Positions 1,915 to 62,020 are shown, counted from the first letter of the whole stretch. The stretch: DNA of 63,028 bases, filler included, from Lenisia limosa (GCA_001655205.1; 9 parts of 9 records of this genome joined end to end with filler, not necessarily neighbours in it), one strand, 5' to 3'. The notes: generated by a model from the letters alone, not told the origin. A program made the numbers and translations.

Positions 1915-4900
1915 CTACATGGGAGAATTGATATTGCCTCTAAACGCTAGTTCTTCTTCTAATTCAGAAACCTGAAATCATCAACACCCGAGACCCTAAG
2001 TTTCAACACAATCAACAGCAAATACAAGACCAAACAAACTTGAACCCCCCTCCCTCCACCCTCAGTTTGAGTTTTTGGTTCTCCGTCCGATCCACAAGGC
2101 AACGCTCCACAGCCGCTTTCAGGCGCACTGCCACAGCTGCAATTACAAATTAAAATGATATGGGGAGATTTTGGAAAGGAAACCCCGTTTTTGTGTGAAT
2201 AGGAGCATTGTTAGTTCAGACTATACCTATTACATATTATATCATGTTGCAAAAAGTAACACAATGCATCTTCATTCATCAATTCTTGATAAATTTACCT
2301 ACATCCAATAACTGGGATACGTCTTGACCGATTTGCTATATGACTATTTCCACAAGGAAAATCGGTCAAGACTTAACCCGGTCACTGAATATTATATTAT
2401 TTATGATATCATGTTGCAAAAAAAAAAATCAAACAATGTGCCTTCATTCATCAATTCTTGACAAATTTACCACAAATAAAAAGCCAAACATCACCCCCCC
2501 CCCGGGGTACCCTGAAGTCGCTTTTCGCTTTCGGTTCTCTCCTCAAGCTGCTTTTGAAGCTCGTCTATACGCACCTGCATTTCCGCAATTGTAGCGTCGC
2601 GTGAACTGCGAGTTAAATGACTTGGGAATTGAGAAAATGGGTAAATGCAGGACAATATAGAAAAACAAGGATTCGTGAACTTGCCCCCCCCCCCTNNNNN
2701 NNNNNNNNNNNNNNNNNNNNNNNNNNNNNNNNNNNNNNNNNNNNNNNNNGACTTCAGACTCCGGGCCATTTTTTGGTTGGGCGTAGAGTAGGCAAAAGGA
2801 TCGGGATGTGCCGGCGGCGGGGATGGTTCTGAATCATTACTTGGGCCTCACTTCAGTTATAACCAAGTCCAGGTTCAATTTTAAATTATATCTGACAACA
2901 ACCAATAACCTATACCCGGCATATAACATATCAGCCCGGTTGAACTGAAGCACTACGTTGAGTTTTCGCCGTAATTTTCACGAAATTATATATGCTGATA
3001 AGCTGCTATCAATGAGACATAATAAAAAAATAGAGTTGTATCTGGCCATAGTTTTTCTTCATTCACTATGTCAAAGTCAGAAATAAAATACCCCGGAACC
3101 CCGGGGAACCTGGTGTTCGATAGACGTTCTGCGGCTTTGGAGGCACAAATTCCGGTGGCCTAAGTAGTGAAATCGAGGTATAAAATGTGGGGTCTATTTA
3201 AAGACATGTATCATATCGAGAAGTCTGTCTTTTTGGAACCAAAAGTGCAGCTCTGTTTGGGGTAACCAATTGACAACAACACCCACTTGAAAGAGGGGGC
3301 AATGGAGTGCTGTAAGTTGTCCACTTTGTTCTCCAACTCAGCTAGCGAACATTCTACAGGGTGGTCAGATATGCGCCCAACCCGGCAATATCGAAAATTA
3401 ATCGAGAAAAGTCTTTTTTGGACCAAATAAAGAAAAAGAACAACAAAGAAGAACAATAAGTAAGAAGAGAACCGCAAAGAAGAAGCCTCCCCCCCCCCCC
3501 CANNNNNNNNNNNNNNNNNNNNNNNNNNNNNNNNNNNNNNNNNNNNNNNNNNNNNNNNNNNNNNNNNNATGGGACTCTGCCAACAAAAGCGACGTTCGGA
3601 GTGCCTGGTCTTCTCTTCGGTTTGTAATAGCTAAGGCCTGTAGGGGTAAGGCCTTCTCTTCGGTTTGTTGTTGTTGATGTAATCCCTCATCAACCCCCCA
3701 CCTCAATTGCAACCCCACATCACACACCTCTTCCTCCTCAATTGCAGCGCGATAGTTAGACGGGCGACATGCGTTGATGGTGGATTCAAGGACACTTGCT
3801 GAGTGACTGGCGTTGGAAATGGCTGTGACAACTTGGCCCTGGGGGGGGGGGGGGGGNNNNNNNNNNNNNNNNNNNNNNNNNNNNNNNNNNAACAAAACAA
3901 AACAAAAATCAATTTTGTTGGCGGGCAAACATGAGGGCTGAAAACAAAAAAACAAACAAAGCTCAGGCCAGTGCAGCACCGCATCACGGGGTAAAATTGA
4001 AAATTGGGAGTTTTGGATTTTATTTCACATAGTAAAACAAAAGGTTATGTCACGCTCATCGTTTGTCCATCTTCTCAACGCAAGACACAAACAATTTCCC
4101 CCTTACACACCTGCAAAAACGCCACAACGTCCGAAAAGCACGCTTTCCATACTGCTGAAGCAACCTAAACAATGAAAGAGAATAATGGAGAATGGGAAAT
4201 ATAGAGGTCAAGCAGAAGCAGTGAAAACCACATCACATTAAAAGAGCTCAAGTATTGTAAAATATTAATGAAAGCAGTGAATCGGTCATATCATGTACCA
4301 CTTGGGCTTCGCTTCGATTCAAAAAAGACTGAATCTCTCAAAAAATCCTCCAAAACTATCGCCGAAGTGAAGCCCTATATACCACCCCGTTGGGTCACCT
4401 TTTTATTGCCGATTCTGCTGTCAACAAGTTCCATCACATAGCGTCGAACTGACTTCTCTAGTTTTTGAGAACAAATAAAACCTAGGGACACGAACGAATA
4501 CATAATGTGTATGAGAAATAAAACAAGGTTGTCGAGGGATACTATCAACATAATTACGATATTACCTAGGGAGGAGATCTGGGATAGTATATTTAATATG
4601 TCGCTACGTATTATGTTGTATTATCAGGAGGTGACTNNNNNNNNNNNNNNNNNNNNNNNNNNNNNNNNNNNNNNNNNNNNNNNNNNNNNNNNNNNNNNNN
4701 NNNNNNNNNNNNNNNNNNNNNNNNNNNNNNNNNNNNNNNNNAAAATATATGTCTCCTCAACCTGGAGGAAGGTGGTGGTGTTTGTGATGAGAAAACTTTC
4801 AATTTCCACCCCCCCACCGTCCACAGAAGGGCTTGCCACCAGCGAAAGCCAAAGGTCAAGGGAAGGTAAAGCGGGTTTGTCCCTTGTTATGACGGTGGAA

Positions 4901-7260
4901 AGAAGATCGGAATGTAGCAAGTAGATGAGGGATGCCTAGGGGAGAGCGGTAAAGGGACAATTGTTGTTAGGGCTTCACTTCGGTTCGAAAAAAGACTGAT
5001 TTTTTCGATAAATCCTCGAAAACTATCGATACTGTACCGTTCTCTTTAGAACCGAAGTGAAGCATAAATTGTGGTTTAGCAAAACACAATGATCTAAAGA
5101 TTTGAGCTCCGGAACCACACCCCCACCCTCTCCAGACTGGTTCTCATTCTCACAGCCGTCACAGCCAGACCAAGAACCACTGCCTCCTCCCTCCGAAGGG
5201 ACTCGCCCCGTCGGCGCTCAACGTCCGTCACCGGCTGCAGGAGTGAAAAATTGGAAAATGTAAGAAAAAAAAAGAAGCCAAAATCAACTCTGTTGACTTA
5301 AGACTACGAATTGAGGCGATAGATGAGACTATGGATTGAGTGGGGCGGGGAGGGAGTAAAGACGAGTTTATATAGAGATGAGAAATAAAACAAAGTTGTA
5401 TACGGCCAAAGCCGCCAACAGCTGAGGAGTATAGGGTGGTTTTGAANNNNNNNNNNNNNNNNNNNNNNNNNNNNNNNNNNNNNNNNNNNNNNNNNNNNNN
5501 NNNNNNNNNNNNNNNNNNNNNNNNNNNNNNNNNNNNNNNNNNNNNNNNNNNNNNNNNNNNNNNNNNNNNNNNNNNNNNNNNNNNNNNNNNNNNNNNTATA
5601 CAAGGCTTTCAATAGTGGATTATTTAGAAAGTGGCTTGAAGATGTGATAGTGGCAAAAAGATGTTCACAAAAAAAAACACCTAGACCAAAGTATTGTGGC
5701 CTTAACAACACAAATAACACAAAAGGATTTGAAAAGCATAACATTCTGTTGAGAACGTTGTGATGGGGTAATCTGGGATATTACCCATCACAACGTTCTC
5801 AATTTTGACCAAATATTCCTATTAAACTCCATGATTGTACACCCATCTCCAAATTCCTTACCTTTAATGGGGCCAAATCGTCCACCGACGCAAGCTGAAG
5901 TGTGAAATGTGTAATAGCTCTATGTAAATATTATATGAACTCCATTCATCCCTCCAACCCATATTACTCCCTTCATTAGGGGGGTCGTTATATTCATGTA
6001 TTATATACATCTATGATATATACGCTCAAGGTCCAAAATTATGTCGTTAATTATTTACGGTCGCCAAATCAGCTATTCCCCTTCAAAACAGTAATATATA
6101 TTTCTGAGATATACACACTTTATTTGTTTATTAAGGGAAACAAAGAAAAAAATATATATTTTGTTTTGCAAGTCAGCAAACTTTATCGAGAAAATTTAAT
6201 TTTTTTAGCGCCACGCTCGCGCAATTTTTTACATTTTTCATATGTCCTTTTTTACAAGTTAAATTGTTTGAAGTTGACCGTAACATGAAAANNNNNNNNN
6301 NNNNNNNNNNNNNNNNNNNNNNNNNNNNNNNNNNNNNNNNNNNNNNNNNNNNNNNNNNNNNNNNNNNNNNNNNNNNNNNNNNNNNNNNNNNNNNNNNNNN
6401 NNNNNNNNNNNNNNNNNNNNNNNNNNNNNNNNNNNNNNNNNNNNNNNNNNNNNNNNNNNNNNNNNNNNNNNNNNNNNNNNNNNNTTCGATTTATACACAT
6501 GTATTAAACGTATATAAAAGGGTAGGGGTCAGAGCTCTTTGTATATCATATAGTATATATACATATATGAGGGGGTTTTGGGGATAGGGTCGAAAAGGTG
6601 TTATACATCACATGTAGCTATAGTATATGAAATATATTCTTATATATATTTGACGCCACCTCATTATCACCCCTCATAGCTNNNNNNNNNNNNNNNNNNN
6701 NNNNNNNNNNNNNNNNNNNNNNNNNNNNNNNNNNNNNNNNNNNNNNNNNNNNNNNNNNNNNNNNNNNNNNNNNNNNNNNNNNNNNNNNNNNNNNNNNNNC
6801 TCCAAGCCTTCAATATTTGAAATCTTGTTTGACGACAGGTACAGAATGCGGATTTTCGCGAGCATCGGAAGGTGTCCCAGCTGAAAGTGTCAGGTTCCGG
6901 AGTAGTAGAGCTGTATTTTCAATGGAAAATATGGAAGTTTGCCCTCAGGGAATATCGATAATTGCTTATTATATTGGAGATGAAAGCTAAGTTTGATTCT
7001 TGAGCATTGGTTCTTGTGGGTTTGTTCTGTGGTGCTAAAATGTCATAATATGCATATAGTATAGCAATGAGAAATAAAAAATAAGATTGTATCTGGCCGA
7101 AGCCGTCGACACCATCATGCTTATCAGAGATATTGGATTATAGTATAATAATCCACCCAATCATTTGCCTAACAACTCTGTGCACACAGCTTTCTCCGTG
7201 CCTCCAGCATACTCAAGAATATTTAGTGTGTTTACAGATAAAGTATCTATTTATTGGCAC
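1915..7260 (-). CDS. Multi-exon gene(s): SDS22-like leucine-rich repeat exon followed by coiled-coil exons
   Basis: Exon 6880->6800 reads LGHLPMLAKIRILYLSSNKISNIEGLE (LxxLxLxxNxIxxIEGL). Downstream minus-strand exons are coiled-coil-like (IAEMQVRIDELQKQLEERTESEKRLQ; LAELENKVDNLQ; VSELEEELAF). Whether they form one gene is inferred. Confidence 0.45.
2306..2387. mobile_element. ~80-bp MITE family M2 (CAGTGACYGGG TIR, Tc1/mariner-like)
   Basis: ACTGGGATACGTCTTGACCGATT..AATCGGTCAAGACTTAACCCGGTCACTG; homologous to 14628 and 52545. Confidence 0.7.
4302..4377. mobile_element. MITE M1, internally deleted
   Basis: Both TIRs; TSD tgtaccac/tataccac. Confidence 0.8.
4968..5067. mobile_element. MITE M1
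   Basis: TIRs and core; TSD attgttgt/attgtggt. Confidence 0.85.
5749..5802. other. Near-perfect 23-bp hairpin
   Basis: TTGAGAACGTTGTGATGGGGTAAT-ctgggat-ATTACCCATCACAACGTTCTCAA. Confidence 0.9.
6018..6150 (+). repeat. Dispersed repeat family C, copy 1
   Basis: Near-identical to the reverse complement of 54383-54500 on another scaffold (GCTCAAGGTCCAAAATTATGTCGTTAATTATTTACGGTCGC..GGGAAACAAAGAAAAAAA). Confidence 0.85.
7035..7212 (-). repeat. Intron composed largely of repeat family B
   Basis: GTATG..AGAAAGCTGTGTGCACAGAGTTG..ATGATTGGGTG..TATAATCCAATATCTC..GGTGTCGACGGCTTCGGCCAGATACAA..ATTTCTCAT..TTTTAG; homologous blocks at 1-100, 3010-3050, 4508-4540, 5378-5425, 30130-30175, 50798-50930, 53885-53965, 55036-55130, 56935-56965, 60826-60900. 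Confidence 0.75.
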
Positions 7261-7320
7261 ATTACTTCTTAAAGGCAGTCAATAGCATCTGATGCTGTAT
7301 CTTGATATATGGTCTTTTAC

Positions 7321-7419
7321 AAGGGATTCATTTCGGTTCGAAAAAGACTGAATGTATCGATAAATCCTCGAAAACTATTTATATTTTCCCGAGTTTTTTC
7401 GAACCGAAATGAAGCCCTA
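7321..7419. mobile_element. MITE M1
   Basis: TSD tcttttac/tctattac. Confidence 0.85.
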
Positions 7420-7513
7420 TCTATTACACCCTAGTCTTGCCTCTTTATTTTGTTTTGATAATAAGGATTCTATTTTTTTATTATTATTCAATTTAATCCT
7501 CAAAAATAGCATC

Positions 7514-7601
7514 ATACCCCCCTACCTCAGAAATGTTCTTGGCCATACCCCTACCTCAGAAATGTTCTTGGCCATACCCCTACCTCAGAAATGTTCTTGG
7601 C
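7514..7601. repeat. 29-bp tandem repeat x3
   Basis: ATACCCCTACCTCAGAAATGTTCTTGGCC three times. Confidence 0.95.
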
Positions 7602-8049
7602 AACAGCAGCAAGCTTTCCCGTCTGTTTTTCATAGCAGCGGGGGTCTCTACTCAAGTAGGTTTCAAGCTAAGTAGTGAGGATGGCTGGGTGAGACTTTGC
7701 TGTTGACAGAAAAAAAGGTAGTGTTAGATAATCCGAGTTTCGCTTCGGTTACAATAAAGATAAATCCTCGATTCAATTTTTTTGGATCCGAAAGAAAAGC
7801 TCTAAATAAATCTAAGAAAATAACGATACCCACCCCCCATGGTATCCCTAAGTATTTATTTGTTTCCCAGATTTCAAATGTATATATACTCACTGTGATA
7901 GTCTTGTTCTATTTTTCTTGCCAGCCGCTGTATATGATATGATATTATTTCTCTTGTTCAAAAAACCCCCCGTAATATCCCTATGCATTGATCTGTTTCC
8001 CAAGACAAATGTAGATATATTATTTCTTTTTTTCAACCCCCCCCCCCCC

Positions 8050-9065
8050 NNNNNNNNNNNNNNNNNNNNNNNNNNNNNNNNNNNNNNNNNNNNNNNNNNN
8101 NNNNNNNNNNNNNNNNNNNNNNNNNNNNNNNNNNNNNNTGGGGAGTAAAGTTGAAAAATTTATGTACAAAAAGCCCAAATCAACTCTGTGGATATTGACT
8201 GGGGGGTGGGGGTGACAGAGAAGATGGATTAAGAGGTTTGAAATCTTTTGTAGAACTTGTGGATGAAACCACCGGGTGTGGATGAAAAAAAGCAAATCTG
8301 TTCGCTCATGTAAGACACATACAGACAATGGGAAAACATAGTAAAATAGGGGGGGAACCAAAATACTATAAAAACTCGAAACCCCTTATCGCATGTCTCC
8401 TCGTGGAACGAGGGAAAGGCATTAACGCAGTTTTATGGTACAGATTAGTACTTAGTGTCATACCCGACAAGTGTTTGCTCTTATTCATGATCACCCTTCC
8501 CCATGTCTTTCGTAACACATTTCATGCAACAATATCGTGGATGAAAAAGGCATTCAACAGCGAAAAGAAACAAAACAGTTGCAAAAATCAGTTAACATTA
8601 TTAACAGTCGACACTTGCCTTCTTATCACCAAACCCGTACTAACTTTGTTTCTGACATGTTGATCCGCATAGCCACTGGGGCAAGCACCAGAAGGGTAGC
8701 CAATCATTTAAACGTGGTTGTTGTCACATCGCAAAATCGCAGAATCAACAAAGTACCCGATCTTTTTAAAAGCAATTTAGGTTCGTTGCTGGTTAATCAG
8801 TCATGCAACACAAAAAGGAGGACCGTCAAGAAAATGAGAGATTTGTACCTTTCGTGTCCACCCAGAGGTATACTCTCATGGCATTCCATTTGGAATGTCC
8901 TTTCACTTTCCAAAATGACGACAATTGAGCACCCTGTTGAATATCTGACAACTGGTCGATAAGAATACCTTGAATCTTTGCGTAGTTAATATATCCGGAA
9001 CCTCGTGAGTCACCTCTTGCAGCCTTTGCTTCCCTACTTGCCTGTAATATCACCTATAGAATAAA
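8050..9065 (+). CDS. Possible uncharacterised spliced gene
   Basis: Canonical ttttgtag|...|gtaag exon at ~8255-8310 (NLWMKPPGVDEKKQICSL) and further GC-richer blocks; frame not resolved. Confidence 0.25.
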
Positions 9066-9106
9066 TAAGACGATTTCCGACAGTTTTTTCCGGTATTTGA
9101 AGCGAA

Positions 9107-12100
9107 ATGGGCTTCGTCAGCCGCCTTCTCGCTAACCACTGCTTCTGTGCCCTTTTCCTTTTTTGCTTTTTTGGCCTGTATTTCAATATCAACCACTGGC
9201 TGTTCCTAACATCGCTTCCTGATTCCCCTTTGCCTCTTGTGTCTGCTCCAGCCGCCGACAACAGCTGCGATGATCTTGTTGTCATGATACAGGTGGGAAG
9301 GCCTTTTGTGTTGTGTGTCTTATCAACTGCTTTCGGAAACATATTTCAAAAGATGACCTTCTTTGTGTTTTTATTTCTCTTTTTTGATGGTGCAATTTAT
9401 CCATGCGCCCATTTTTAACCTCAGTTGGGGTTATATCTGGTTTTCTTTGCCGTTTACTTGCCATATTGGGATAAGGGGTCTTATCATATATATATTATTA
9501 TTTTTTGCATTTTAAAGTACTTTCATGCGCATAAATCAAGCAATTTGGGATTGGAGAAATTTTGATGTTTGCTACTTTAAAAAATAATGAAAAAACAATT
9601 CCATACTGGATTAAGGTTTTGAATTGGGATAACCATTTTCAGATTACTGACATTCATCTGAGCACGGTTACTGAGAGTGACAGTCGCAAGAACCTGAAAA
9701 ACTTCGCGGACGACTTTGTTCCAGTTATTGGTAGGGGAACGGGTATACGGTGTGGAATCAATAAAATAAGGGCACATTTACTCTGAGCTTTTTTGTGGTG
9801 AATTAATCATTATACCCTTTTCCAATATCTCTCATGAGCTATCCCCCCCCCNNNNNNNNNNNNNNNNNNNNNNNNNNNNNNNNNNNNNNNNNNNNNNNNN
9901 NNNNNNNNNNNNNNNNNNNNNNNNNNNNNNNNNNNNNNNNNNNNNNNNNNNNNNNTTGTTATCAAACCTTGTGTGTGCCAACAGAGTTGATTTCATAAAT
10001 ATTCCAAGTTTACTCCCCACCTTTAGCTCCGGAAGTGGTAATTGTTTCGGGTGACATAACAGACGGCAAGGCCACCAAATACCCTGACTTCAAAATGTGG
10101 GTTGCTTTATAAATGTGATGATGTAGATGGCACTGGCCAGGGAGTAACACCCCTTAAATTTTCTAGTCCTGGTAGAATGATAGACACTAGAGAGGCAATT
10201 GTTTGACATTGTAGGGGGCAGGTTGAAGCCGACTGGCAGCTGTACTACGACACAATGAAGGGCATCAACGCCACCATCATTGACCTAATGGGTGGGGAGG
10301 GCTTTTATTTGAGTTCTCTGTTTTACCTGCTTGTGGTTAGTAAATTGGCATGAATAAAATCATTATAAATATAATTCAATAACTCTAATAAGCGTGATGA
10401 GTATCCACATATTGCCAGTGATATGCTAGCAGTTGAAGTTACGCTTCAGGCAACCACGATCAATTCAATGTCATCAAAGGCGAAAAGGAGGCTGAATACT
10501 ACGAGAAGTATGGTTTTGCACCGTGGCGGACTTCAACTAATTCCCCTCCAAAAGGTATGGTGCATTTGGCTATATGGTGGTCGTTAATTGAAATAATTTT
10601 CAAAATTTGACTTGGAACATATTGTAACGAGAGCCCTTTTTAGACACTTTAATTTCTAATTTTGTCAATTAATTTCCCCAAAAATTAATTGCACAGAGCC
10701 CACTAAGATTTACCGTCCGAATTGAAGCCCAACTCACATTCACAGACATCCCACCAAGGTCTGTTGATCTGAGCGAAGAAGACTTCAATACGGCTCTTCT
10801 CTCCGCGTCTCGGTTCAGACAGTCCGTATACTCCAAAAATGGTTGGGGGTAGGTTGTGATACAGTATTGGGGGGGGGGGGNNNNNNNNNNNNNNNNNNNN
10901 NNNNNNNNNNNNNNNNNNNNNNNNNNNNNNNNNNNNNNNNNNNNNNNNNNNNNNNNNNNNNNNNNNNNNNNNNNNNNNNNNNNNNNNNNNNNNNNNNNNA
11001 TAAATCCGAGAAAGGATCAAAGAGAGCTTGAACGCTTTACAAGCATTTTAGCCAATAACGTGGGTCTACTGTGCCGTTTTTTTTAGATCCATACAGTCCC
11101 TTTGTCAACCGCGGATCTCTATGATCCTAGTTTCAATAGAGACCTTACTGCAAAAAACAATCCAATACTTATGAACCGCCAGGTCGCTACGACTTTATTC
11201 TTGACAACCCGCTGCATGAAGTCGGCTTCACCAATGTCGCCAACTTCTGTGAGTAGAGCCAAGAAATACATTAAATTAAATCAAGGGATAATACTACAAT
11301 CTTTGTGTCTTTTTATTTGGGTTTATCTTCTTGCCCATTTTTATGTTTGCCCCAACATATCATATGACTACATATACGTCCAAAGCTGACTCTGTAGATA
11401 CAGCGCATCAGCGGTACCTTGTTAATCGCCTGAGTTTCCTGATGCAAGAGTAGGCTTTTACATTTCTCCAAACTACATAGTTATATGATATTTCTTTATT
11501 ATATTATATGTATGTACACAATATATACTTGTGTACTATATCATATATAATATCGTATCAACGAATCATCACAGCACATTGTATGTAAATAGAAGGGAAT
11601 AATGGTTCAGCTTTATTTCATTAATAGTACAATGACCTACGTAAATGGATTCGTTTCTCACCATATCATTTTATTACGTATTTCCACCTGTCTTTTTTCA
11701 ACAGTTACCCTTATTCACCCGCACAGTTCCTACCAGAACGCTAACANNNNNNNNNNNNNNNNNNNNNNNNNNNNNNNNNNNNNNNNNNNNNNNNNNNNNN
11801 NNNNNNNNNNNNNNNNNNNNNNNNNNNNNNNNNNNNNNNNNNNNNNNNNNNNNNNNNNNNNNNNNNNNNNNNNNNNNACGATGACGATACAGCAGGAGAC
11901 AACATCCGATGGCAAGGAATACTTCGAGCTTTGTAGGAGGGGGTGCGACGGTCACTCAAAAACTTCCAACATATTGGGAGAGAGGGGATGTTTGGAGGAA
12001 AGGGTTTTTTAAAAGTTTCAGAGGGTGGGGGGGGGGNNNNNNNNNNNNNNNNNNNNNNNNNNNNNNNNNNNNNNNNNNGGTAGCTGATCAGAGCTTTTCT

Positions 12101-15100
12101 TGGTAAGTTTAAGTCAATACGCTACCTCTCCCATTATGGCATGTGTTGTTTTGAGGCTTCACTTCGGTTCGAAAAAGTCCAGTCAAATTAGTTTTCGAGG
12201 ATTCATCTAGAAATTCAGTCTTTTTGAACCAAAGTGAAGCCGTAGTTATTTTTTTACCAAGTTTGTCACACAACGGTCAATCTTAAACGTCTAATGATGC
12301 CAGGCGAAGAGTTCCCATTTACGGCCCATTTGAGCGGTCATCTGCACAACGGCATGGCGGGTATCCAGCCTCAGGTGGCGGGGGGATACGGTAGTTCGAT
12401 ACAGCTAGTAGTATCTTGGTGTAAAGGTACTTCGCCTCAGCTTTGTTTTAGAGTAAAACAATCCATTAAATTCAGCAAGAAAATATATCATACATATTTA
12501 TACGTAGTACATCTACATATATATTAGATATATCTCGAGTAACATCGGAATACATAGTAAAGACTCATCTTTCAGGGGCATATGCAGCTGACCACTTCGG
12601 ACTTTTCCCGCAAACAAACCGTCCGCATCATTGCTCTTGGTAGGCATCCAATGTGGCTTTTCAAATGAAAATGAGCTTTCAAAGATAAAGCTATGTGCTT
12701 GATCCCTTCCACTTCCTCCNNNNNNNNNNNNNNNNNNNNNNNNNNNNNNNNNNNNNNNNNNNNNNNNNNNNNNNNNNNNNNNNNNNNNNNNNNNNNNNNN
12801 NNNNNNNNNNNNNNNNNNNNNNCCATCATTCTTGCAACATTCCCCTACGATGCTGAGGCTGCCCTTGGTGCTGACCACCATGTTGCTCGTGATGAAGTTA
12901 GTGGATGGGGAGTAATGCAAAATTTTATATAAAAGCCCAAATTCAACTTGGGGGGGGGTAAATTGGAAAAAATTTGAGGAAAACGAAGGAAATTTCGATG
13001 AAGACTATTGACGTAAAGATACTAAACACGAACCAATAATGTGGGAGTTGGGGGGGTATTGCTCAGATGAGGGGGATTGCGTTTTTAGCCAGATCTAAAT
13101 ATATCATATACGCTTTTGATATGGTCCTTTTTCTGTAAGCACCAATTGACTATTACCAGACCACCACCTTCCGCGTCTTGGTTTGGACCGACAGCGACGA
13201 CGTCACCGTTTTCGTGTCCGTTAACAACAACATCGAAATCCAGTTGTACAGAGCGGAGGGTTTGTGGGGTGAAAATTCTGCTTTTTATATCTTGAAGCTT
13301 CTGTTTCTTTATGTGCTATTATTCCCCATGGAACTGCCGGATCAATAATCATAGCTAAGTACTGAAGCTGGCAGAGTTGATTATTGAGTTACTTCATACA
13401 TCTTCCATTGTTATGTTGATTATGGGCTTTTTTTGTTTAATAAATTTTCCAATTTTACTCCCCCGCCGGTTGGAAGCTTCCGTATTCACTGCACAGCTGG
13501 CAAGCCGCTTTTCACCGCCACCATACCCGATATTGTGGACACTAAAGCGGCCGGAATACAGAATATGCAAATTCGTGCTGTTGATACTGATGGTGGGGGG
13601 GGGGGGCAGNNNNNNNNNNNNNNNNNNNNNNNNNNNNNNNNNNNNNNNNNNNNNNNNNNNNNNNNNNNNNNNNNNNNNNNNNNNNNNNNNNNNNNNNNNN
13701 NNNNNTACTTTTGAAACAAATCTCATAAGAGCTGAAACAGATCTTATTCCTACAGGCAGAGAAACTACCAAGAACATCATCGTTTCTTTTGATGGGTCAT
13801 ACGAAACCCCTTCGTCTGGTGGGCAGGGTGTGGGTGAATAATTGCCAAACCATTTGAAAGTGGAAGCTGTTCTTAGGTTGTGATTTTGTAGTAATATAAT
13901 ATATAATACGCAGTGATACTGGAGCCATGTGATGATATTTGTAATACTTGAACTTGAACCCACGGTACATTTCATTGTTTAGTGACACGAGCTCTGTACC
14001 TTGCTCCGACTGCGATGTGTAGGTGGAGCTTATCTCTTTGAAAGCAATCCGCTAAACGAAATGAAACTTTAGGGTGGAATAGGGCTTCACTTCGGTTCTG
14101 ATGTTTTCGATAAATCCTCGAAAACTATCGATATTTTGCCGAACCGAAGTGAAGCCTCAAGGTGGAATGATTTTTGCTCTGTTGACCAAATAAGCCTGCT
14201 TTGACTCAAGCTAAACTTTGATTTCGAAAAGGTTGACTTTATTCATATCGTTGGATGGCTTCAGCCAATGGCTTCACTTCGATTCGAAAACAGACGAATT
14301 TCTCGATAAATCTTCGAAAACTATCGATATTTTAGTGTTCTTTTTCGAACCGAAGTGAAACCTTATAGCCTGATATTAATATACTGATGCAATCGTCTCC
14401 CAATAACCTCCCGTAGTCATGTACGTCACATGCCTTGTTGTGATTCTGTTCTATCTCCTGACGGCGACAACGCTTTTGAAGGACTATATGGTCAGCACAG
14501 GAAAATGGGAGGCTTTCGAACTCAGGATTGCCAAGGACTTCCTAGGTTGGCTTGTTGGCTGGAGATAATACAGTTTATAAAATCTATGGAAAAGAAATGA
14601 ATAATGTATGCATGTATGTAATATGTACACTGACTGGGATAGTCTTGACTTATTTTTCTTGGGAATCACATAGCAAATAGGTCAAGGCTTACCCCGGTTA
14701 CTGTATGATATCTTCAATGGATAAACTAAATAAATGCTATATTATACAACCGGGCTCTACGCATACTCTCCAGTTGCTGTCATTTCATACGTTTTCCAGT
14801 TAAGTTCAACGTTTCTTGCTCATGGTTGTTATTGCTCTCTCTCTCTCGTTTTTTTTTCTCTCTCTCTCTTTCTCTCTCTCTCTCACTCACTCTCTCTCTC
14901 TCTCTCTCTCNNNNNNNNNNNNNNNNNNNNNNNNNNNNNNNNNNNNNNNNNNNNNNNNNNNNNNNNNNNNNNNNNNNNNNNNNNNNNNNNNNNNNNNNNN
15001 NNCCTCCCAGCCATTTGCAAACCAAAAAGGGCCGCCCATCTTGCTGCCCTCTTTGAGGGCCCTGTCAAAGCCTATGTTGAGAAAACCCTCGAGGCCAGGC

Positions 15101-16050: not shown

Positions 16051-16077
16051 GTTCAAATTGAAGGAATTCCAAAGAGA

Positions 16078-17949: not shown

Positions 17950-20100
17950 TACATACCCTACATTCTGGAGATTGGTCCGGACTCTAAGCCACTATCCGGG
18001 AAGTCTTTGCTGTTGTTTTCGTCCCACTGCTTCACAGGGCGCTGGAGGGGAGTAAAATGAAGGAAATTTTGATGAAGAATATTGACGTGAAGGTATTAAT
18101 CACGAAGAAACCACAAAAAACCCATTCTANNNNNNNNNNNNNNNNNNNNNNNNNNNNNNNNNNNNNNNNNNNNNNNNNNNNNNNNNNNNNNNNNNNNNNN
18201 NNNNNNNNNTTGCCAAAACGGTTATTTCCACCAAACTGCCGGGGTGCTCCGGGGCGGCCGTCTCTGTTACCAAATTCACGGTTGTTGTCACGATTGTTCT
18301 GGAATCGGCCCGTGCCACGAGCCTCATTGTCGTCACGGTTTACACGGCCCGCGTTTTGGCTTCCGAAGGAGCCACGTCTGTCAGTGCGGGTGTTGTCGAA
18401 GTTCCTGTTGTTGTTGAAGGGTCTTGAGTTATCGAAGGATCTTGAGTTGGGGTTGAAGGGACGGTCCTCGTTGCTCTTGTTGTGGAAGGCTCTCTGGCGG
18501 TCAATACCGAGAGACTCGTCATTGTTCTCCTGAGAAGTCAGATTTTTGAATTTCTTCATTTTGTGAAAAACGCGATAAATATCGATATTTTCGAGTATCA
18601 ATCGACAATTCCGTTTTGAGAACTAGAAGTGATGGTGATCGAAAAAAATCGAGAGAAAACCAATTTTATTTCATATTTTCTTGTTCCCATATCCCCTCCC
18701 CCAATACCTCGAACATATCATGGCCCCAGGAATCCGCATCAGCCTTGGACTTTTCCTCTCTACGATAGCTGCGCTCCTAAAAGGAAATGAGTGTCGGTTA
18801 AACTAGGGCTTCCCTGTGGTCCAAAAAAGCCAGGTAAAAGATAGGTAGTTATCGAGGATTTAATTAGGTCTTGTCTTTGGTTTCAATACACACTTTTTTT
18901 TGGACCGTAAGCAGGCAAGTCTTGTTAAAACAGAGCAGACAAATTAAATGGCAAAGATGAATAAAGTTACCCTCGCAACCCCGCAACTGAAGTTATAATG
19001 GAAATACAAACAAGATCCCCTTCCTCCCATATCAGCACTAGGGCTTCACTTCGTTAGAAAAAAGACGGAACTTCTCGATAAATCCTCGAAAACTATCGAT
19101 ATTTTACCGGACTTTTTCGAACCGCAGTGAAGCCGTAATCAGCAACCCCCCTCACCTCTTGGCGATCGTCCGAGTCACGTGCCAGAGGGTGGGTGAAGGT
19201 ACGGCGTTCGGGGAACCCTGGTGTGTCAAGTGATGAGGGGGGGGGGGNNNNNNNNNNNNNNNNNNNNNNNNNNNNNNNNNNNNNNNNNNNNNNNNNNNNA
19301 AAACTTCAATAACAAACACGAGCAACCAACGCTAAGTAAAACACAGGATTGCAATCGCAATAATAATAATAAAAAAACTGGGAAGAAAAGAAACGGATGC
19401 AAAAGCAGGAGCTTTACTTGTCCAAAAAAATAATAATATTGATTCGATCAGTGCTCCTACAAGACCCGCCAAACCTGACACTCTCTCATCCAAACGATCG
19501 TTCCTGTCGCCTCTTCTAAACGTGTCAACAGAGAGGGGATCAAAGGCAACATTCCTGTTATTTGCTTCATGTGACTGTTGCAAACTTGCCAAAACAATCA
19601 GACCTCCCTTCAGAAAAAACCCGGTCAAGACTAGTGCTTCACTTCGGGTAGACAAAAGACCGAATTTATCGATAAAACCTCGAAAACTATCGATATTTTC
19701 CCGGGTTTTTTCGAACCGAAGCGAAGCCTTTGTCAAGACTATCAACTGCCCCCAACCTGGAGGGTCTACTATCACGACGCTCATCACCACGTCTGTCATC
19801 ACGCCTGACAGTTCGATGCGCATCTCTCTCGCTTCTAGGGGGATTAAAAATGGAAAAATTATGAAACAAAAAAAAAACTCAAAATCAAATGTTAATTCCT
19901 TCTTCCAATAAGTAAAAGAAAGTGCCACTTCAAAAGTACCCACTGGTGATGATTCTGTTCACATTTTACAAAATGTACTCCAAGACTATGAGAGATTTCT
20001 TCCCCCGAAGCCATCACCCTCCCACCTTTCCTTTCTGTCACTTCTTTCATGCCCGCTTCCGCTGCGGACATCGGTACGCTCAGTTCCGAGACGGCTGNNN
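17950..20100 (-). CDS. Low-complexity R/D/G/N-rich putative RNA-binding protein with WxHD motif (ALY/REF- or Btz-like), partial
   Basis: Exons read SERDAHRTVRRDDRRGDERRDSRPSR, ...KADADSWGHDMFE, then an N/R/G-rich exon 18540->18210; clean GT/AG boundaries. Confidence 0.5.
19039..19137. mobile_element. MITE M1
   Basis: TSD atcagcac/atcagcaa. Confidence 0.9.
19632..19731. mobile_element. MITE M1
   Basis: Perfect TSD GTCAAGAC (19624-19631, 19732-19739). Confidence 0.9.
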
Positions 20101-20521
20101 NNNNNNNNNNNNNNNNNNNNNNNNNNNNNNNNNNNNNNNNNNNNNNNNNNNNNNNNNNNNNNNNNNNNNNNNNNNNNNNNNNNNNNNNNNNNNNNNNNNN
20201 NNNNNNNNNNNNNNNNNNAAAACAAGCAAATAGATACAAATCGGTGAGAGGAGGAGGGGATTAAAATTGAAAAGATTATGAAACAACAAAAAAAGCCCAA
20301 AATCAAATCTGTTGGCTGACCACACACAAGAGTTGATAGCAACAAAACAAACAAAACACAGGTCAGTCGCTTCTGCAGCACCGTATGCCCAAGTAAAATT
20401 GGAAAATAAGGGGAGGGAGGGNNNNNNNNNNNNNNNNNNNNNNNNNNNNNNNNNNNNNNNNNNNNTTAATTAATTAANNNNNNNNNNNNNNNNNNNNNNN
20501 NNNNNNNNNNNNNNNNNNNNN

Positions 20522-49348: not shown

Positions 49349-51510
49349 ACAGCATCTGTGCCAAAGTAATTGAGGTCCTGGACGCCTTTACCGCATATCT
49401 CCAACGAGTGGTTTTCCTCTGGAGGGGAGGGGGAGTTATTAGAAGCTATGAAATGATATGATATGTTACGCTATGTTATTTGTATTAGGTTTATAGTGTT
49501 ATATATTACTGTGTTTTATTATACACAGTATATAATATAGGTGACCCCCCAAAACCGCGAGCACTACCGAAACCGCGAGCACTTTTTTAAAATACTGATT
49601 TTTATTAGTTTTGCCTTTTAAAAAACTCAAAATTTAACCCTGTAAAAGAGTAAAGGGCATTGAACTGAACTGATTTTTTTAAGAGACTATTCTAGAATTT
49701 TCTAAAAATTTAAATTTGCTTATTTTTGCATTTCAAAACTTGTTTCAGGAAAAAACCCTATTATTGAAGTTTTTGAGGGATTTGTAGGACCGTTTTTGTG
49801 GGATTTTCAAAAAGTATGTTGTGATATGTGTAAGGTTGTTTTCCTCTGGATGGGAGAGGGGGGTCAGCTGTGTAAGTGTGTAAGCATAGGTACATGTATG
49901 TCCACTATCACACTTATTAGAGATAGTGAAGTATAGCACAATATCAACAGCCAAAATATTCAACGTAGTCAAAAGTAAGTCAATTCAGTGCGTTTGGGCT
50001 TCCCTGCGGTCCGAAAAAGAGCGATATATCGATATTTATTGAGGATTTATCGAGAGATTCGGTCCTTTTAGAGACCGTATGGAAGCCCTAGTTATGACGG
50101 AATCTGCTAACTAGGGCTTCACTTCGGTTCGATAAAAGATTGAATTTCCAATAAATCTTCGAAAACTATCGATATTTTACCAGTCTTTTTCGAACCGAAG
50201 TGAAGCCCTACTGCCAACCCACAAGCCCTCCAACCAGAATAGACAGCGTAGGTCTGCGAAGTGATGGGTGTGAAGAACGTGACATCCGAGTGCATTGGAG
50301 TAGGGACAGTTACTTCGGCATCGTAGATGACGTCGTAGCTCTCGGGGTTACTGCTAGAAACACAGGTCGAAACAGCAGTACCGCCCTCTGAGGGGGGGGG
50401 GGTCAACTTTGTATACCTATCATATGATGAATCCATGAGCCAAAAAAGGCGGAGTACAAATGGGAAATTTAGGAAACACAAAAAACAAAAATTAACTAGG
50501 TTTAAATTCAGCTTTTTTTCGGGATCGTAGGGAAGCCCTAAATATAACATTTGAAAGATAGGAAGGAGAGAACCTGTGACCCCTTTTACCATGTACAAAG
50601 AAAGTGGCGCCTTCCAAGGAGTGGATGTCCGTAATCCCAGACTGAAAATGGTAAATACAGGGGGGAAATAATGGTGGAGGTGCAAGTGNNNNNNNNNNNN
50701 NNNNNNNNNNNNNNNNNNNNNNNNNNNNNNNNNNNNNNNNNNNNNNNNNNNNNNNNNNNNNNNNNNNNNNNNNNNNNNNNNNNNNNNNNNNNNNNATAAA
50801 AAATAAGGTTGTACTTGGCCAGAGCCGTCCACACCATCACACTTCTAAGAGATATTGGATTATAGTATATTAATATTAATTCACCCAATCATTTGCTTTA
50901 CAAACTCTGTGCACACAGCTTTCTGTATAATAATAATATTATATACTTTTCTGTGTTTCAGCAACCCCCCCACTCAAAAACCAGACTGAAAAGTCCACCA
51001 TAACACAAATAGGGCTTCACTTCGGTTAGAAAAAAGACTGAATTTCTCGATAAATCCTCGAAAACTATCGATATTTACCGGTCTTTTTCGAGCAGAAGTG
51101 AGGCCCTAAACATAAAACATCAATATCGCCGGCAAACCAGTGCAAAGTAGTCCAGGGTGTGCATGAAGGTGCCGGACAGTTTAGAAGTGTGGCAGTTGGT
51201 CCGAGCTGAAGTCTGTACTGCCAATGCCAGCCCATAGTCTGAGAGTAAGGACAGGGATAATGATGGGATGTGTTGCTGTAATTCGGGGATAATGTGAGGG
51301 TTGATGATAGTTAAATATCGATATTTATCGAGGATTTATCGAGATTTTCACTCTTTTTTGGGACCGACGAAAGCCCTAGGTTTGAGTGTAGATATCAGGT
51401 TGTGATAATTATAACTCCGCTTTGTAGCTGCTTTTATTGAGCCATAATGCATGATAACTTTGTATCACCCCCCCCCCCTCCCATACCCAGCACCAGGAAG
51501 TACTCAAAAA
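49349..51510 (-). CDS. Uncharacterised multi-exon gene fragment (S/T/Y-rich, possibly extracellular)
   Basis: Exons 50387->50240 (EGGTAVSTCVSSSNPESYDVIYDAEVTVPTP..) and 51240->51130 with C-run-AG acceptors and GT donors. Confidence 0.4.
49994..50090. mobile_element. MITE M1, CCTAC-type
   Basis: Both TIRs and inverted core; TSD not clear. Confidence 0.8.
50112..50210. mobile_element. MITE M1
   Basis: TSD ctgctaac/ctgccaac. Confidence 0.9.
51010..51108. mobile_element. MITE M1
   Basis: TSD aacacaaa/aacataaa. Confidence 0.9.
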
Positions 51511-54119: not shown

Positions 54120-54190
54120 CAAGTGAGGGATAACTCTTGACCGATTTCCTATCTGGTTTCCCAAGGAAAAACTATCAAGACCAGGTTACC
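54120..54190. mobile_element. MITE M2, degenerate
   Basis: Shares TCTTGACCGATTT..CCCAAGGAAAA core. Confidence 0.55.
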
Positions 54191-54382
54191 GTATATTGAC
54201 CCTCAAATTTTAATATTGTAACTCCCCATTTTCNNNNNNNNNNNNNNNNNNNNNNNNNNNNNNNNNNNNNNNNNNNNTTAATTAATTAANNNNNNNNNNN
54301 NNNNNNNNNNNNNNNNNNNNNNNNNNNNNNNNNCCCAGGCCATTCGCTTTTGCAGCACTCAAAAAAAAATTGAAAGTTATTT

Positions 54383-54539: not shown

Positions 54540-56154
54540 ACCTTTTCCTTGGTTTTAGGTCCCGGTCTTCCTCAGATTCGCTTTCACTGCAAAATTAAAG
54601 AAATCATAGAGGGGAAGAGTGCAAAAATCAAAGAGGTAAATATGGAAAATATATGAAACGGATTATAAATGGGGCCCCGACCTGTATTTTTTTGTTTTCC
54701 TGCGGCCGCGCCGCCTCTCGCTATAGTCAGAATCCTCTTCCGAGTCCGAATGCCTCTTCTTATGCCGACGGCGCGATGCTCTGGGAGGGGGGGGGGNNNN
54801 NNNNNNNNNNNNNNNNNNNNNNNNNNNNNNNNNNNNNNNNNNNNNNNNNNNNNNNNNNNNNNNNNNNNNNNNNNNNNNNNNNNNNNNNNNNNNNNNNNNN
54901 NNAACACACGAGGGTTGAAAACAACAAAACAAACAGAGCCCAGGACAATCGCTTCTGCAGCACCGCATCCCGTGATGGAAAAGGGGGGGGGGTAAAATTG
55001 GAAAATTTATGAAAAGAAAATGGAATCTTTACCGGGCAACTCTGTGCATACAGCTTTCTGTGTGCCTCCCCAGATATTGGATTATAGCTTAATAGTATTC
55101 ACCCAATAATTTGCCTTACAACTCTACACATACAAAGGCTTAGAAGTGTCACAACCGACCACGATGAATCAATATTTCCAGACTTTTATATTTTATCCTG
55201 GTCCGAAAAGGCGACAATTATCGTGAAATTCAGTCTTTTTTTGCCCCCTAGTCATACCTGTTTCTGTGGCTATCTTCTTCGGAGTCCTCACTGTCGTCTG
55301 GAGTGTAATTTCGTGTAACTCTTTATTTAGACTGTCATTTTGTAGAAAGTATGATCACACCTTCATTTGACTAGATCATTATATTCATTCCTTTATTTAA
55401 TGTGACCATACCATTATATTATCAGAATATATGTTGGGCTCCCCTACGGTCTGAAAAAGACCTTCATATTTATCGTGAATTTGGGGAATTTCAGTCTTTT
55501 GCGGAGCGAAATGAAGCCCTAATGATATGGTTCTGAGAGTGATCCGCCCTGTCACTTTATTCATTTCATCATGAGGTGAATTCAAACAACCACATATTCC
55601 CAACTGACGGTATAAACAATAAAACAAGCAATAAAGCGGTTGAATGAATTTCAACAAGAATCAAGGCAACTATCCCAACCGTATTTACTCCGAGATCTTG
55701 AGCTTCGTCGTTTGCTGGATCGTCTCTCGCGTTCTGACTCTTCCGAGCTTTCTTCATCATCTCGATCACGGCGATGGGACCGGCTTTTAGAGTCTCGACG
55801 GTTTCTTTCTCGAGAGATCGAGCTACGACGACCTACAAAGGGGGAATCAGGGAATGCAAGACGTAGTCGCCCGCAAAAGAAGCTGATTAGGCTCTCCTAA
55901 ACAAACCTCTTCTGCCTGCAGAGGGAGATGGGGGTGGGCGAGCAGAGGAGTGTGTAACTGATTCTATTAAAGAACGAGTTAGATCAAACTACCCAGTAAA
56001 AAAGCCAACCTTCTCTTCCGTGTGATGATTTGCGTCGGTGAGACGACGACTTCCTGGAATTTTGCGGAGTATCATCATACAAGTCTAACTCGTCTTTATC
56101 CATCCCGCCATCATCCTCGTAGTCGTGCCTGGAGCTACGACTACGCTGCGACAT
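54540..56154 (-). CDS. RS/acidic-rich N-terminus of a putative splicing-related protein (partial)
   Basis: ATG 56154 MSQRSRSSRHDYEDD..; exons GRRSSISRERNRRDSKSRSHRRDRDDEESS.., DDSEDSEEDSHRNR, ASRRRHKKRHSDSEEDSDY.. with GT/AG ends. Confidence 0.55.
55434..55521. mobile_element. MITE M1, hybrid TIRs
   Basis: Left GGGCTCCCCTACGGTC, right GCGAAATGAAGCCCTA; flanks aatatatg/atgatatg. Confidence 0.75.
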
Positions 56155-57730: not shown

Positions 57731-58006
57731 CTATGGAGGGAGTAAAATGAAGGAAATTTAGATGAAGTATATTGGTGCAAAGTACGACTCACGAGTGAAA
57801 TGGGAAATTTATGGAACAAAAAAAAAGCCCAAAATCAACTTGAATGATACATGAGGGTTGAAAACAACAAATCAAACCAAAAAAGCCCAGGCCAGTCNNN
57901 NNNNNNNNNNNNNNNNNNNNNNNNNNNNNNNNNNNNNNNNNTTAATTAATTAANNNNNNNNNNNNNNNNNNNNNNNNNNNNNNNNNNNNNNNNNNNNCCC
58001 CCTTAG

Positions 58007-58879
<873 letters not shown>

Positions 58880-59279: not shown

Positions 59280-62020
59280 CACGTCCACAAGGTGCTGGAA
59301 TCTCCATTACCCTCTCACGTCCACAAGGTGCTGGAATCTGGGGTCATTGACATTGACTTCTCCACAAGGCTTATCAGCTTCGTCTTCCTACATTCAGTGA
59401 ATTCTCAATAAACGGCATCGCCAACATCCGAGAGGAAATGATTGATCATTATCAACCGTTATCTTCACTAATCACTTCAAAGATTGCAATCAACCGTTAT
59501 CTTCACTAATCACTTCAAAGATTGCAGTTCAACTATCTATTTTCAATTCTCAAATATAAATTGAACACGATAACACTACTCTGATAGAAATGCACCACCA
59601 CTATCATTACAATACACCACCACTATCATTATAATTGACCCCGCACCGGATTTCTGCTGTCCTCAATGCGGTAAACCATATGCGGTCCATTGACATCGAC
59701 ATATTCAACCTGGGGGTGGGTGAGTAAAATTGGAAAATTTATAAAACAAAAAAAAAGCCCAAATTAACTCTGTTGGCTGACAGACAACACCAGGGTTGAT
59801 AAAAACAATAACAAAAAAAAACAAAGCCCAGAAATTGGATAATTTATAAAAAAAAAACTAAAAAAAATGCAAGACCCGCCACGTTCTCGGGAAGTTTGAA
59901 CATTTCAAGGTGGCGTGAGGCGGGTTCAATCATAAACGCCTCTCCGTGACCCTGAAAACTGTCAAATACGAATCTGATTAAATAGTTTTGGAGTTGATTT
60001 CAGAATTGAAGTTGGTAATATATACAGTGGCCGATATTCCCGATTATTCCGATAAATTCAATAAACAAAATTTAGATGAAAATATAAACAGGTACCTCAC
60101 ACCAACATGCAAAAAAGATCGGATAATCGGGCAATAATAATCCGCCAACCTGGACATAGCCGGATAGTCCCTCACACAAGGCCAATGCGACAGTTGGCCG
60201 CTCATCAGCCTAAAGTTACATTTATACTCAAAACGGGAAGTCGTAAAATTGGTTTATCTTAGATTAAGATCTGATTATATCAGGTACAATTATGAACCTA
60301 AATAGAAAATCTGGCAATCTCAGAAGTTTTAAACTCTGTAAAAAGCACCCATACAAAGTCGTTAATTTATGTAATCTCAGCAAACGCTGGGTAACATAAG
60401 CATCATGTCCGAACCCAAATACCCAAATATAATCACAATACCCAATAATATCAAACTACCTGGGGGTCGTTGACAACCCGGCCCTGGTAGTAGCAGTGAA
60501 TTGGAGGAGGCAGCGTGATTTCCTCAATTAACTCTCCGTCCGGGGAGTAAACCTGGGGAGGGTAAGGATTCCTTAGCTATTAGCATGTAATGTGTACCGG
60601 TTTTGCAAAAAAAAAAAATACCCAAATCATCTTACTCTCACCTCCCCCCCCCCCCCCNNNNNNNNNNNNNNNNNNNNNNNNNNNNNNNNNNNNNNNNNNN
60701 NNNNNNNNNNNNNNNNNNNNNNNNNNNNNNNNNNNNNNNNNNNNNNNNNNNNNNNNNNNNNNNNNNNNNNNNNNNNNNNNNNNNNNNNNNNNNNNNNNNN
60801 NNNNNNNNNNNNNNNNNNNNNNNNNATCTGGCCGAATCCACACCACCACGTTTATAAGAGATATTGGACTATAGTATAACATTAATTCACCCAATCATGA
60901 ATGACACGTTATATGTACATATGATTACGGGTTCCTTACGGTCCCAAAAAAGACTGATTTACTCGATAAATCCTCCATAAAATATCGATATTTGACCAGT
61001 CTTTTTGGATCGTAGGGAAGCCCTACATATGATACATTAAAACACAACAATAATTTTAGAGAGAACTGGAAAGTATCCATCTGCTCACAATCTCTCTCCC
61101 ATTATTATCTCACACATACCTTGCGACAAGTCCCCCCAAGCCCACCTTGGAAAAAGCCTTGATCACTAGACCGGCAATTGAGTCCGGGAATTCATCTTCC
61201 GAGCGTCTCAGGGTCGGCTGAACAGGGTTATTGGGGGATGGGGTGAAAGAAGAAATTCTCTCAAAAATGATGATGAAAAAGGTATAACAATCAACAAAAC
61301 AAACCCTATTATCAACCCAGCAAATAACCCCCCCCCCCACAAGAGAAGGTCTTGTAATTTCGTAATACTCCAGCCCTTTGGCCATATCACTTTCACCCGT
61401 TTTGTCCCGAGGGAGAGAGGCATCAGGGAGGTCTGGGTTGTTAACAGAGATGTTTGAATGATGATAATGGGATTGATAGTGAGTGTTTGAGTGATGTCAA
61501 AATTTGCATTAAAGATGGTTATAATGAGTTAGAGGGAATGTTATTTCGATTGTTACATGAGCAATCCCAAATATCTGACGTCTTAATGATAGTGGAATAG
61601 TCTGAGAAAGACGAAATTACATAAAAAAGACTGGCAATTTGCTCTTGATTTTCTAGAATTATATAATTTATCAAGGGATGGTATCTTGCCACCTACATTT
61701 ACTCCTAAAAACAGAGTATTATATTTCAGTAAACTCAAAAATAAAAAAAAGTTGAATCATTAGACCCCTCCTTCTCATCAACAATGGGACATATGGTGTC
61801 AGCAGCAGTATTTGAGATGTTATTATGAAATGGGCACAAATTATAAACAAGCAGGAATCCTTAAAAACAGAGGAGAAAGCACCACCAAAGGCTTAAGAAG
61901 GGTTCTCAAAATACCTTGTTTGGTGAGGCCCTCAAAGGGCTCAATATTGATGGCATAAGCTGAGATGAGAAGGAGGAAAAGAGCCAACAGCGTTAGCAAT
62001 GGGGGGGAGTGGGGGCGCAT
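59280..62020 (-). CDS. ADAM/ADAMTS-like (M12B reprolysin) metalloprotease: signal peptide and prodomain, truncated by scaffold end
   Basis: ATG 62020 with signal peptide; YYEITRP; IKAFSK; HCYYQGRVVNDPQ|ADERPTVALALCEGLSGYVQ|GHGEAFMIEP; GPHMVYR; cysteine-switch-like KPCGEV. Junctions in frame. Confidence 0.8.
59710..59882 (-). repeat. Intron composed largely of repeat family A
   Basis: ..TCAGCCAACAGAGTTAATTTGGGCTTTT..ATAAATTTTCCAATTTTACTCACCCACCCCCAG; homologous blocks at 3891-4010, 5241-5305, 8139-8195, 9956-10026, 12908-12985, 13405-13465, 18045-18130, 19839-19895, 20245-20410, 39379-39478, 54340-54360, 54903-55020, 57733-57897, 58380-58425. Confidence 0.8.
60926..61025. mobile_element. MITE M1, CCTAC-type
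   Basis: Perfect TSD CATATGAT. Confidence 0.9.

Follow-up and report, generated by a model that had tools for sequence, protein, structure and literature searches.

Introns of unrelated genes which share their 3' parts raise the question of whether the common sequence once created these introns or reached them when they already existed. This question is posed by a window of 63,028 nucleotides (nt) from Lenisia limosa, which is the whole stretch of DNA analysed. It is composed of nine short scaffolds, with N-padded spacers in between, and contains numerous gaps next to C or G runs; all copy counts and comparisons among introns given here refer to it. A preliminary description of the window had proposed that the repeat, here called family A, is a decaying introner family, i.e., a mobile sequence that makes new introns by carrying its own splice signals. 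The analysis presented here identified family A as a dispersed repeat of about 150 nt, and the reading that we favour, as on balance probable, is that of a non-autonomous, retroposon-like element whose insertion takes place in the C-runs of introns already present; at acceptors it would be tolerated, as its tail replaces the branch point that was displaced.

Family A and its copies

A profile built from the copies and run on the window identified 16 copies on eight of the nine scaffolds, whereby a real repeat on six or more scaffolds with about 15 recurrences, as initially described, was confirmed; the addition that it always resides in introns is unproven, with the copy at 54334 lying beyond the last placed exon. 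Upon leave-one-out all 16 copies were recovered with expect values (E) of 2e-22 to 0.004, the weakest being those at 54334, at 12902 and in the DDX46 gene (E 0.002-0.004), while the reversed window gave no match at E<=2 and the best value obtained from five block shuffles was E 0.18. Identity to the longest A copy amounts to 75-90% over 40-114 nt. Under DUST masking of low-complexity sequence, upon which the similarity had been expected to disappear if it were spurious, the family persisted. In the DNA run, long unique contigs possess a depth of 17-36, as compared to 26,506 at position 5277 inside A and to 10,657 and 15,861 in two bins holding A; these depths are not convertible to copy number and were taken only as a sign that the family is very abundant.

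That ordinary T-rich and C-rich 3' splice sites have merely converged is suggested by the tail, which resembles the normal end of branch point and C-run found here, and by the three copies that reach only E 0.002-0.004. Such an artefact is highly improbable, as no HSP60 or cathepsin intron matched at E<=2, complex GC-rich modules are common to the copies, the family withstands masking and, in the DNA run, the depth over A exceeds that of unique contigs by a factor in the hundreds. Convergence is refuted as to the 13 strong copies and is possible as to the DDX46 copy.

Next to A, a separate module of about 60 nt was identified (A2), of which only the last ~25 nt are common with A. The copies first listed as A at 18045 and 57733 both turned out to be this module. 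The copies and their surroundings are given in the following, with minus and plus denoting the strand.

3891..4015, minus: long A copy with tail-like head, GC-rich module and core (leave-one-out E 1.5e-13), the 3' end of which enters a gap, then C-run and AG at 3839-3840; predicted intron 3839-4110; an RNA contig piece ends at 3837, with an in-frame join.
5237..5306, minus: A core and tail, ending at predicted acceptor 5235.
8139..8192, minus: A core and tail; 5' flank a branch-like motif and C-run, 3' side inside a gap.
9852..10022, visible 9956-10022, plus: A, probably full-length, at the 3' end of TMEM62-like intron 9731-10026; in-frame join.
12902..13035, minus: A2 module, tail and a truncated A (A match 12902-12975, E 0.0033) stacked on one another in antisense, at the donor end of plus-strand intron 12897-13159.
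13415-13469, plus: A tail, together with a weak partial copy at 13367-13412 (E 0.1), in RNA-confirmed intron 13260-13496.
18044..18108, minus: A2 module, ending at predicted acceptor 18042.
19838..19891, minus: A tail, ending at predicted acceptor 19835.
20251..20407, minus: longest visible A copy, C-rich on both flanks, away from an acceptor.
24022..24088, plus: core and tail of A, 3'-terminal in p47-like intron 23984-24090.
39374..39478, profile 39375-39478, minus: predicted 105-nt intron, A-like from donor to acceptor, with a CAGGT direct repeat on both sides.
50448..50503, minus: A tail, ~60 nt upstream of predicted acceptor 50388.
54334..54377, minus: A 5' module at a scaffold end (E 0.0037).
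54903..55015, minus: A tail and C-run (54984-55015), then a second A 5' half, which enters a gap before C-run and AG.
57734..57897, minus: A (57797-57897), then directly A2 (57734-57795), which ends at predicted acceptor 57731.
58381..58425, profile 58373-58424, plus: weak copy of the A tail (43 nt at 86%, E 0.0019), with which DDX46 intron 58338-58425 ends.
59711..59852, minus: tail-like head and A body, making up most of predicted ADAM-like intron 59710-59882.

As had been described, introns 39374-39478 and 59710-59882 consist largely of A, with profile matches of 104 and 142 nt, respectively.

Strand, acceptor placement and the branch-like motif

The genes of the window are intron-dense. 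Exon models were set by coordinates for HSP60, a papain-family protease and DDX46, which yielded 24 A-free control introns from these three genes, and the protease model is identical to the stored protein P0121 at all 298 residues, thus supporting the eight introns of this gene. Host strands were derived from a simple gene finder trained on the three modelled genes, from RNA contig ends and from in-frame joins, whereby RNA cover is given by 19 contigs on 1-16077 and introns without cover are uninformative. Pfam searches with 26 single exons named Cpn60 as the sole family at E<0.001. The names HSP60, DDX46 and protease rest on the analysis; the remaining ones, i.e., TMEM62, p47, ADAM, AMP deaminase and acyl-CoA synthetase, are those which we presume from the translations.

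On the strand of the host gene, 15 of the 16 A copies were found (p=5e-4), with the strand at 8139 and 54334 being read off the surrounding gene map. The host-gene sense noted in the earlier description holds for these 15 and fails for the stack at 12902-13035, which is antisense at the donor end of its plus-strand intron and there meets a G-run a few bases after the donor. The 8139 copy was considered as another antisense case and rejected, as the plus-strand gene begins only at 9107.

Visible sense tails amount to 14 (12 A and two A2), nine of which adjoin a predicted acceptor, while five (13415, 20251, 50448, 54984 and 57797) do not; for three further copies (3891, 8139 and 54903) the 3' end falls into a gap, and they are not among the 14. 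Under an assumed per-copy chance of 7%, 12% or 20%, nine out of 14 corresponds to p=6e-8, 6e-6 and 4e-4, respectively. The notion that the repeat ends at or just before the acceptor AG was hence borne out for nine tails and not for the other five, among them 13415, where the acceptor of intron 13260-13496, the one RNA-joined A-bearing intron, is located 30 nt past A and possesses its own branch-like motif at 9 nt. For three other repeat families of the window (B, C and D, see below) a predicted exon within 20 nt downstream was found for none of 37 copies, a contrast based on predicted exons only, whereas the A acceptors were additionally checked by hand. None of the nine A-tailed acceptors is RNA-confirmed; six are based on in-frame exon joins and three (5235, 18042 and 57731) on motif and downstream open frame.

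In all 24 control introns a TNA(C/T) motif is present, its A being located 7-11 nt from the intron end. Where an A tail adjoins the acceptor, the tail's own motif is in each case the nearest one, 10-16 nt from the end (9/9, p=3e-5), and provision of the branch point by the tail is, as judged by motif, well supported. From the tail to the AG the sequence is a different one at each of the nine acceptors, hence the AG is not part of the repeat. What had been suggested to be supplied by the repeat's end, namely branch point, C-run and AG, can consequently be retained as to the branch-like motif, the sole one near the AG at nine of nine acceptors, but not as to the AG.

Acceptor choice itself shows two particularities. 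In HSP60 intron 30496-30585 the first AG past the pyrimidine stretch is skipped and, according to the reading frame, a second AG 15 nt downstream is used; in p47-like intron 23984-24090 the first AG is likewise skipped for a second one 5 nt downstream, as required by the frame.

Anatomy of the element

The fullest A copies are composed, in this order, of a tail-like head, a GC-rich module, a T-rich linker, the core and a tail ending TTTTACTCCCC. When aligned, the 3' ends of the copies coincide in the C-run and their 5' ends are ragged, in line with the variable 5' truncation noted at the outset. A tail-like segment ahead of the body was identified in the copies at 3891, 20251, 54903 and 59711 and, weaker, in that at 54334. 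Direct stacks are formed by A and A2 at 12902-13035 and 57734-57897 and by A on an A tail at 54903-55015; at other loci represented in the DNA run A and A2 are joined in other orders, one joint repeating the last 36 nt. Further, 95 contigs run out of the copy at 13415 where its C-run lies and continue in C-rich sequence of low agreement (0.43) and without a fixed AG.

Searches for features of known elements gave the following results. The longest A copy possesses no end-to-end terminal stem (z=0.39), its ends being direct and not inverted repeats, and its fold is not superior to that of shuffled sequence, 121 of 200 shuffles being as good. No match on A was obtained with Rfam at gathering thresholds, and in the window only transfer RNA (tRNA) and U3. 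Three matches to the hammerhead core motif were found in the window, which is chance level, none of them in A. No Rfam or ARAGORN match to a tRNA-like head was obtained on any A copy, whereby decayed heads could escape such a search. The exact 25-nt core motif had no match in metagenome contigs and a 20-nt motif none in viral contigs.

Relation to introners and age of the host introns

For introners, it is required that similarity starts close to the 5' as well as the 3' boundary, a rule by which elements that entered an already existing intron secondarily are deliberately removed (PMC9860276; likewise PMC12130899). When the ends of 11 A-bearing introns were compared, their 5' 40-mers gave a mean pairwise local score of 11.7 (maximum 22) as compared to 11.3 (maximum 23) for the controls, and their 3' 60-mers 32.5 as compared to 13.2, four of these introns having boundaries off by one base and one an uncertain donor. 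In no intron pair does similarity reach the donor end; intron 39374-39478 alone is A-like at its donor. Thus the window holds one end-to-end candidate, where the introner rule demands at least four. None of the 15 joints listed skips a whole A-bearing intron (1231 more exist; one DNA run).

The age of a host position was assessed for DDX46, i.e., for one position, with a weak copy. Among 120 homologues, 99 continue across the junction, while in 16 the similarity ends directly behind the motif GFEPQ; four break later and one lacks the motif. The 16 breaking homologues stop within 4-34 residues and begin with V (13) or A (3), which is what GT and GC donors would give on read-through. One of them (P0104) matches its spliced Umbelopsis sp. 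cluster-mate (P0131) up to the GFEPQ codon and then diverges, and a read-through record (P0005) originates from Funneliformis mosseae. This protein-level evidence points to the DDX46 intron occupying an old phase-0 position common to fungi. An ancient position shared with distant orthologues, which the preliminary description had named as an observation that would tell against its proposal, was hence encountered at the one position compared, though on one of the three weakest copies. The metagenome DDX46 loci lack an intron at this place in 80 of 80 cases (the best 80 of 336 by E-value), which is uninformative on intron age because ranking by E-value selects uninterrupted genes. A search with the TMEM62 exon returned one protein only, an unspliced read-through of this organism's own DNA.

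Regarding the donor of the DDX46 intron, the read-through residues of P0002, P0003 and P0005 (Funneliformis and two similar records) suggest a GC donor at the GFEPQ intron.

These data bear on the assumption that A made its introns by inserting into exons and that their 5' parts later diverged or grew. For this assumption speak intron 39374-39478, with its A-like stretch from donor to acceptor and CAGGT on both sides, intron 59710-59882, which is mostly A, and the strong sense and acceptor bias; the 80 intron-free metagenome loci could be added, the DDX46 copy being weak and a parallel gain possible. However, no two introns are alike at their 5' end while their 3' parts are 75-90% alike, hence only one side of the introns would have had to decay. 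There is no common AG, five of the sense tails lie internally, one stack is antisense and the TMEM62-like copy begins ~120 nt inside its intron. In addition, the DDX46 position is common to Umbelopsis and, by read-through, to Funneliformis, and the intron-free loci were chosen by E-value. Decayed introners are consequently held to be distinctly unlikely, and an introner family was not upheld: no pair of introns is alike to the donor end, the AG is not shared, the DDX46 position is common to fungi, and a pattern of this kind is classed as secondary insertion.

This does not extend to every single intron. The 5' 31 nt of 39374-39478 are A-like when compared with shuffles (p=0.014), and as this intron is A-like from its donor onwards and CAGGT-flanked, it is the best introner candidate of the window, so that single new introns made by A remain conceivable. 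CAG|GT on either side is, however, also what the ordinary consensus of splice junctions gives. As further candidates for an A-derived origin the 5' parts of the DDX46 intron (p=0.36) and of intron 59710-59882 (p=0.90) were considered and rejected, both resembling A no better than shuffles.

Proposed insertion into C-runs and its possible mechanism

Throughout the window donors are often followed by G-runs and acceptors often preceded by C-runs, so that intron ends look reverse-complement symmetric, and assembly gaps mostly begin at these donor G-runs or acceptor C-runs. One such gap, at 9852-9955, is spanned by P0122, an unspliced read-through which apparently represents this same DNA as found in another assembly. 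The 25 residues of P0122 that fall into the gap match the 5' half of A with a score of 42.4, which is reached by none of 200 shuffles; against two other long copies the respective scores are reached by 1 of 200 and 24 of 200. Because of this fit the TMEM62-like copy is likely full length, starting ~120 nt into its intron. It carries a C-run on each side and a branch-like motif ahead of the first C-run. At least seven C within the 10 nt 5' of the copy are present in three of the 16 A copies, as compared to 0.7% of genic positions (p=2e-4), namely in the TMEM62-like copy, in that at 8139 with the same motif and C-run as 5' flank, and in the longest copy with its C-rich flanks on both sides.

The proposed mechanism assumes that A is copied through RNA by a reverse transcriptase encoded elsewhere, with priming taking place where the terminal Cs match a genomic C/G run. 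An RNA-copied element is favoured because 5' truncation, partial tandems and simple-repeat targets are known for Penelope-like retroelements. In this genome the branch point is often separated from the AG by a C-run, and an element inserting there would push the old branch point away. These insertions would be tolerated, since with the tail a branch-like motif is again present, 10-16 nt from the AG of the host, while insertions of opposite orientation beside donor G-runs would mostly be lost. In its simplest form, an old acceptor (motif, C-run, AG) would be split by an element whose end restores motif and Cs.

Several points weigh against this proposal. On their 5' side 13 of the 16 copies lack a C-run, and two of the three C-run-flanked copies lie next to a gap or to the end of a scaffold, places at which C-runs are over-represented, with boundaries set by eye. 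At the copies no clean target-site duplication was found, in A neither hammerhead core nor tRNA-like head nor stable fold, and no reverse transcriptase partner was found, a genome-wide search not having been made. Use of the branch point is deduced from motifs only, with control introns from three genes, and A-free acceptor 50388 also possesses a motif at 16 nt. Finally, sense-strand runs of five or more comprise 56 C-runs and 60 G-runs; with counts this equal, pure C-run targeting predicts antisense copies at donors as often as sense copies at acceptors, whereas 9:1 was observed (p=0.009).

This asymmetry and the 15/16 sense bias, which DNA-level targeting of C-runs does not account for, would both be explained if A RNA or complementary DNA reached the acceptors via the transcript (e.g., by partial reverse splicing or RNA-templated repair) and replaced the 3' end of the resident intron. 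Such a takeover coupled to splicing or transcription predicts shared sequence through the AG, none of which is seen, and copies exist that are internal or antisense. Moreover, family C lies in sense (10 of 10 matches at E<=0.01, four of them weak) but not at acceptors, thus the sense bias is not special to acceptors; the coupled takeover was accordingly judged decidedly improbable. As family C is equally sense-biased although it is not terminal, and as the sense strand of introns is rich in T (T 0.38, A 0.25), a filter may plausibly act in general against sequence that is A-rich in sense.

The same composition, by which A-rich antisense copies may be purged, also enters the view that A belongs to another non-autonomous class (Helitron-like or derived from tandem repeats), whose insertion is untargeted and whose retention is shaped by selection alone. 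Modular chimeras of A, A2 and C, the lack of a poly-A tail and the lack of a clear duplication fit this view. Yet intron interiors tolerate many copies of B, C and D (0/37 within 20 nt upstream of a predicted exon), hence selection alone should leave A mostly internal, while nine of 14 tails are terminal, and we give this origin little credence.

Beyond insertion into C-runs with subsequent tolerance, a bolder idea was formulated, which is rather unlikely in our estimation: A would be a mobile branch-point cassette which some step linked to splicing or transcription directs to acceptors, those of ancient introns, and by which the 3' ends of hundreds to thousands of introns would have been rewritten genome-wide, and which occasionally makes a new intron (39374-39478), an ordinary repeat thereby becoming an introner.

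Other repeats and genes of the window

Family B comprises ~24 loci (e.g., 148-247, 4968-5063, 19039-19136 and 51010-51107) of ~100 nt with terminal inverted repeats and apparent TA flanks and resembles miniature inverted-repeat transposable elements (MITEs); inside introns ~10 copies run with and 14 against the gene strand (double hits removed), and it is the deepest repeat in the DNA run. Family C (5-71, 7060-7195, 50797-50924, 53875-53967, 55031-55133 and 60826-60898) is ~130 nt long and has no inverted ends. Its T-rich strand lies in gene sense in 10 of 10 matches (six strong), away from acceptors; it has a 9-nt core in common with A, forms chimeras with A at 8139 and 54984-55133 and folds no better than shuffles. 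Family D is a hairpin-like repeat of ~80 nt inside introns (2304-2389, 14626-14705, 52543-52624 and 54124-54188).

Between HSP60 and the protease, a U3 small nucleolar RNA gene is located at 32969-33206 (minus). A tRNA-Gly(GCC) gene was found at 42216-42286 (minus), next to which C-rich blocks are duplicated locally at 42375-44050, with reading frames broken.

Comparison with known systems

No report of a repeat taking over the acceptor ends of existing introns was found in the literature searched, with supplementary tables and most subscription papers outside the search. Introner surveys discard repeats that match at one end, and an element landing at acceptors with its own branch signal would thus be filtered out. 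If the reading favoured here is true, a mobile sequence can replace a core splice signal at old intron positions, which would offer a route by which the consensus of 3' splice sites changes within a lineage, and plausibly an intermediate on the way to true introners, and common 3' ends of introns alone would be no evidence of intron gain. Should A, in contrast, merely prefer C-runs and owe its distribution to selection, nothing more would be at hand than an ordinary repeat family, as yet undescribed, in an assembly that is unfinished.

Introners (PMC9860276, PMC12130899, PMC11282704 and bioRxiv 10.1101/2020.10.14.339549) and A have in common that a short non-coding repeat occurs in many introns of unrelated genes, is gene-oriented and provides part of the splice signal, and for some introner families, as for A, inverted repeats are not needed. 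They differ in that introners reach from boundary to boundary at new positions, whereas A makes up the 3' part of most host introns, without the AG and in at least one case at an old position. Antisense Alu elements (PMC2330237) are like A intronic repeats whose T-rich strand gives 3' splice signals in one orientation; Alus are, however, distributed 55:45 by orientation and create new alternative exons inside introns, while A is distributed 15:1 and lies at a constitutive-looking acceptor, where it likely replaces the branch point and adds no exon. MITEs, here represented by family B, are like A short, very abundant, intron-resident and non-coding, yet family B has terminal inverted repeats, mixed orientation and a location in intron interiors, in contrast to A, which lacks a terminal stem and is oriented and terminal. 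With Penelope-like retroelements (PMC8557442), A shares 5' truncation and the partial-tandem (pseudo-LTR) arrangement of a truncated copy ahead of a fuller one, and the bias of these elements for insertion into simple repeats and their complex junctions may be likened to A as well. Unlike them, A is only ~150 nt long, possesses neither coding frame nor hammerhead core, and its apparent target is a C-run and not (TA)n. By its anatomy, A hence fits an element which would work like a Penelope-like one, without being assigned to that group.

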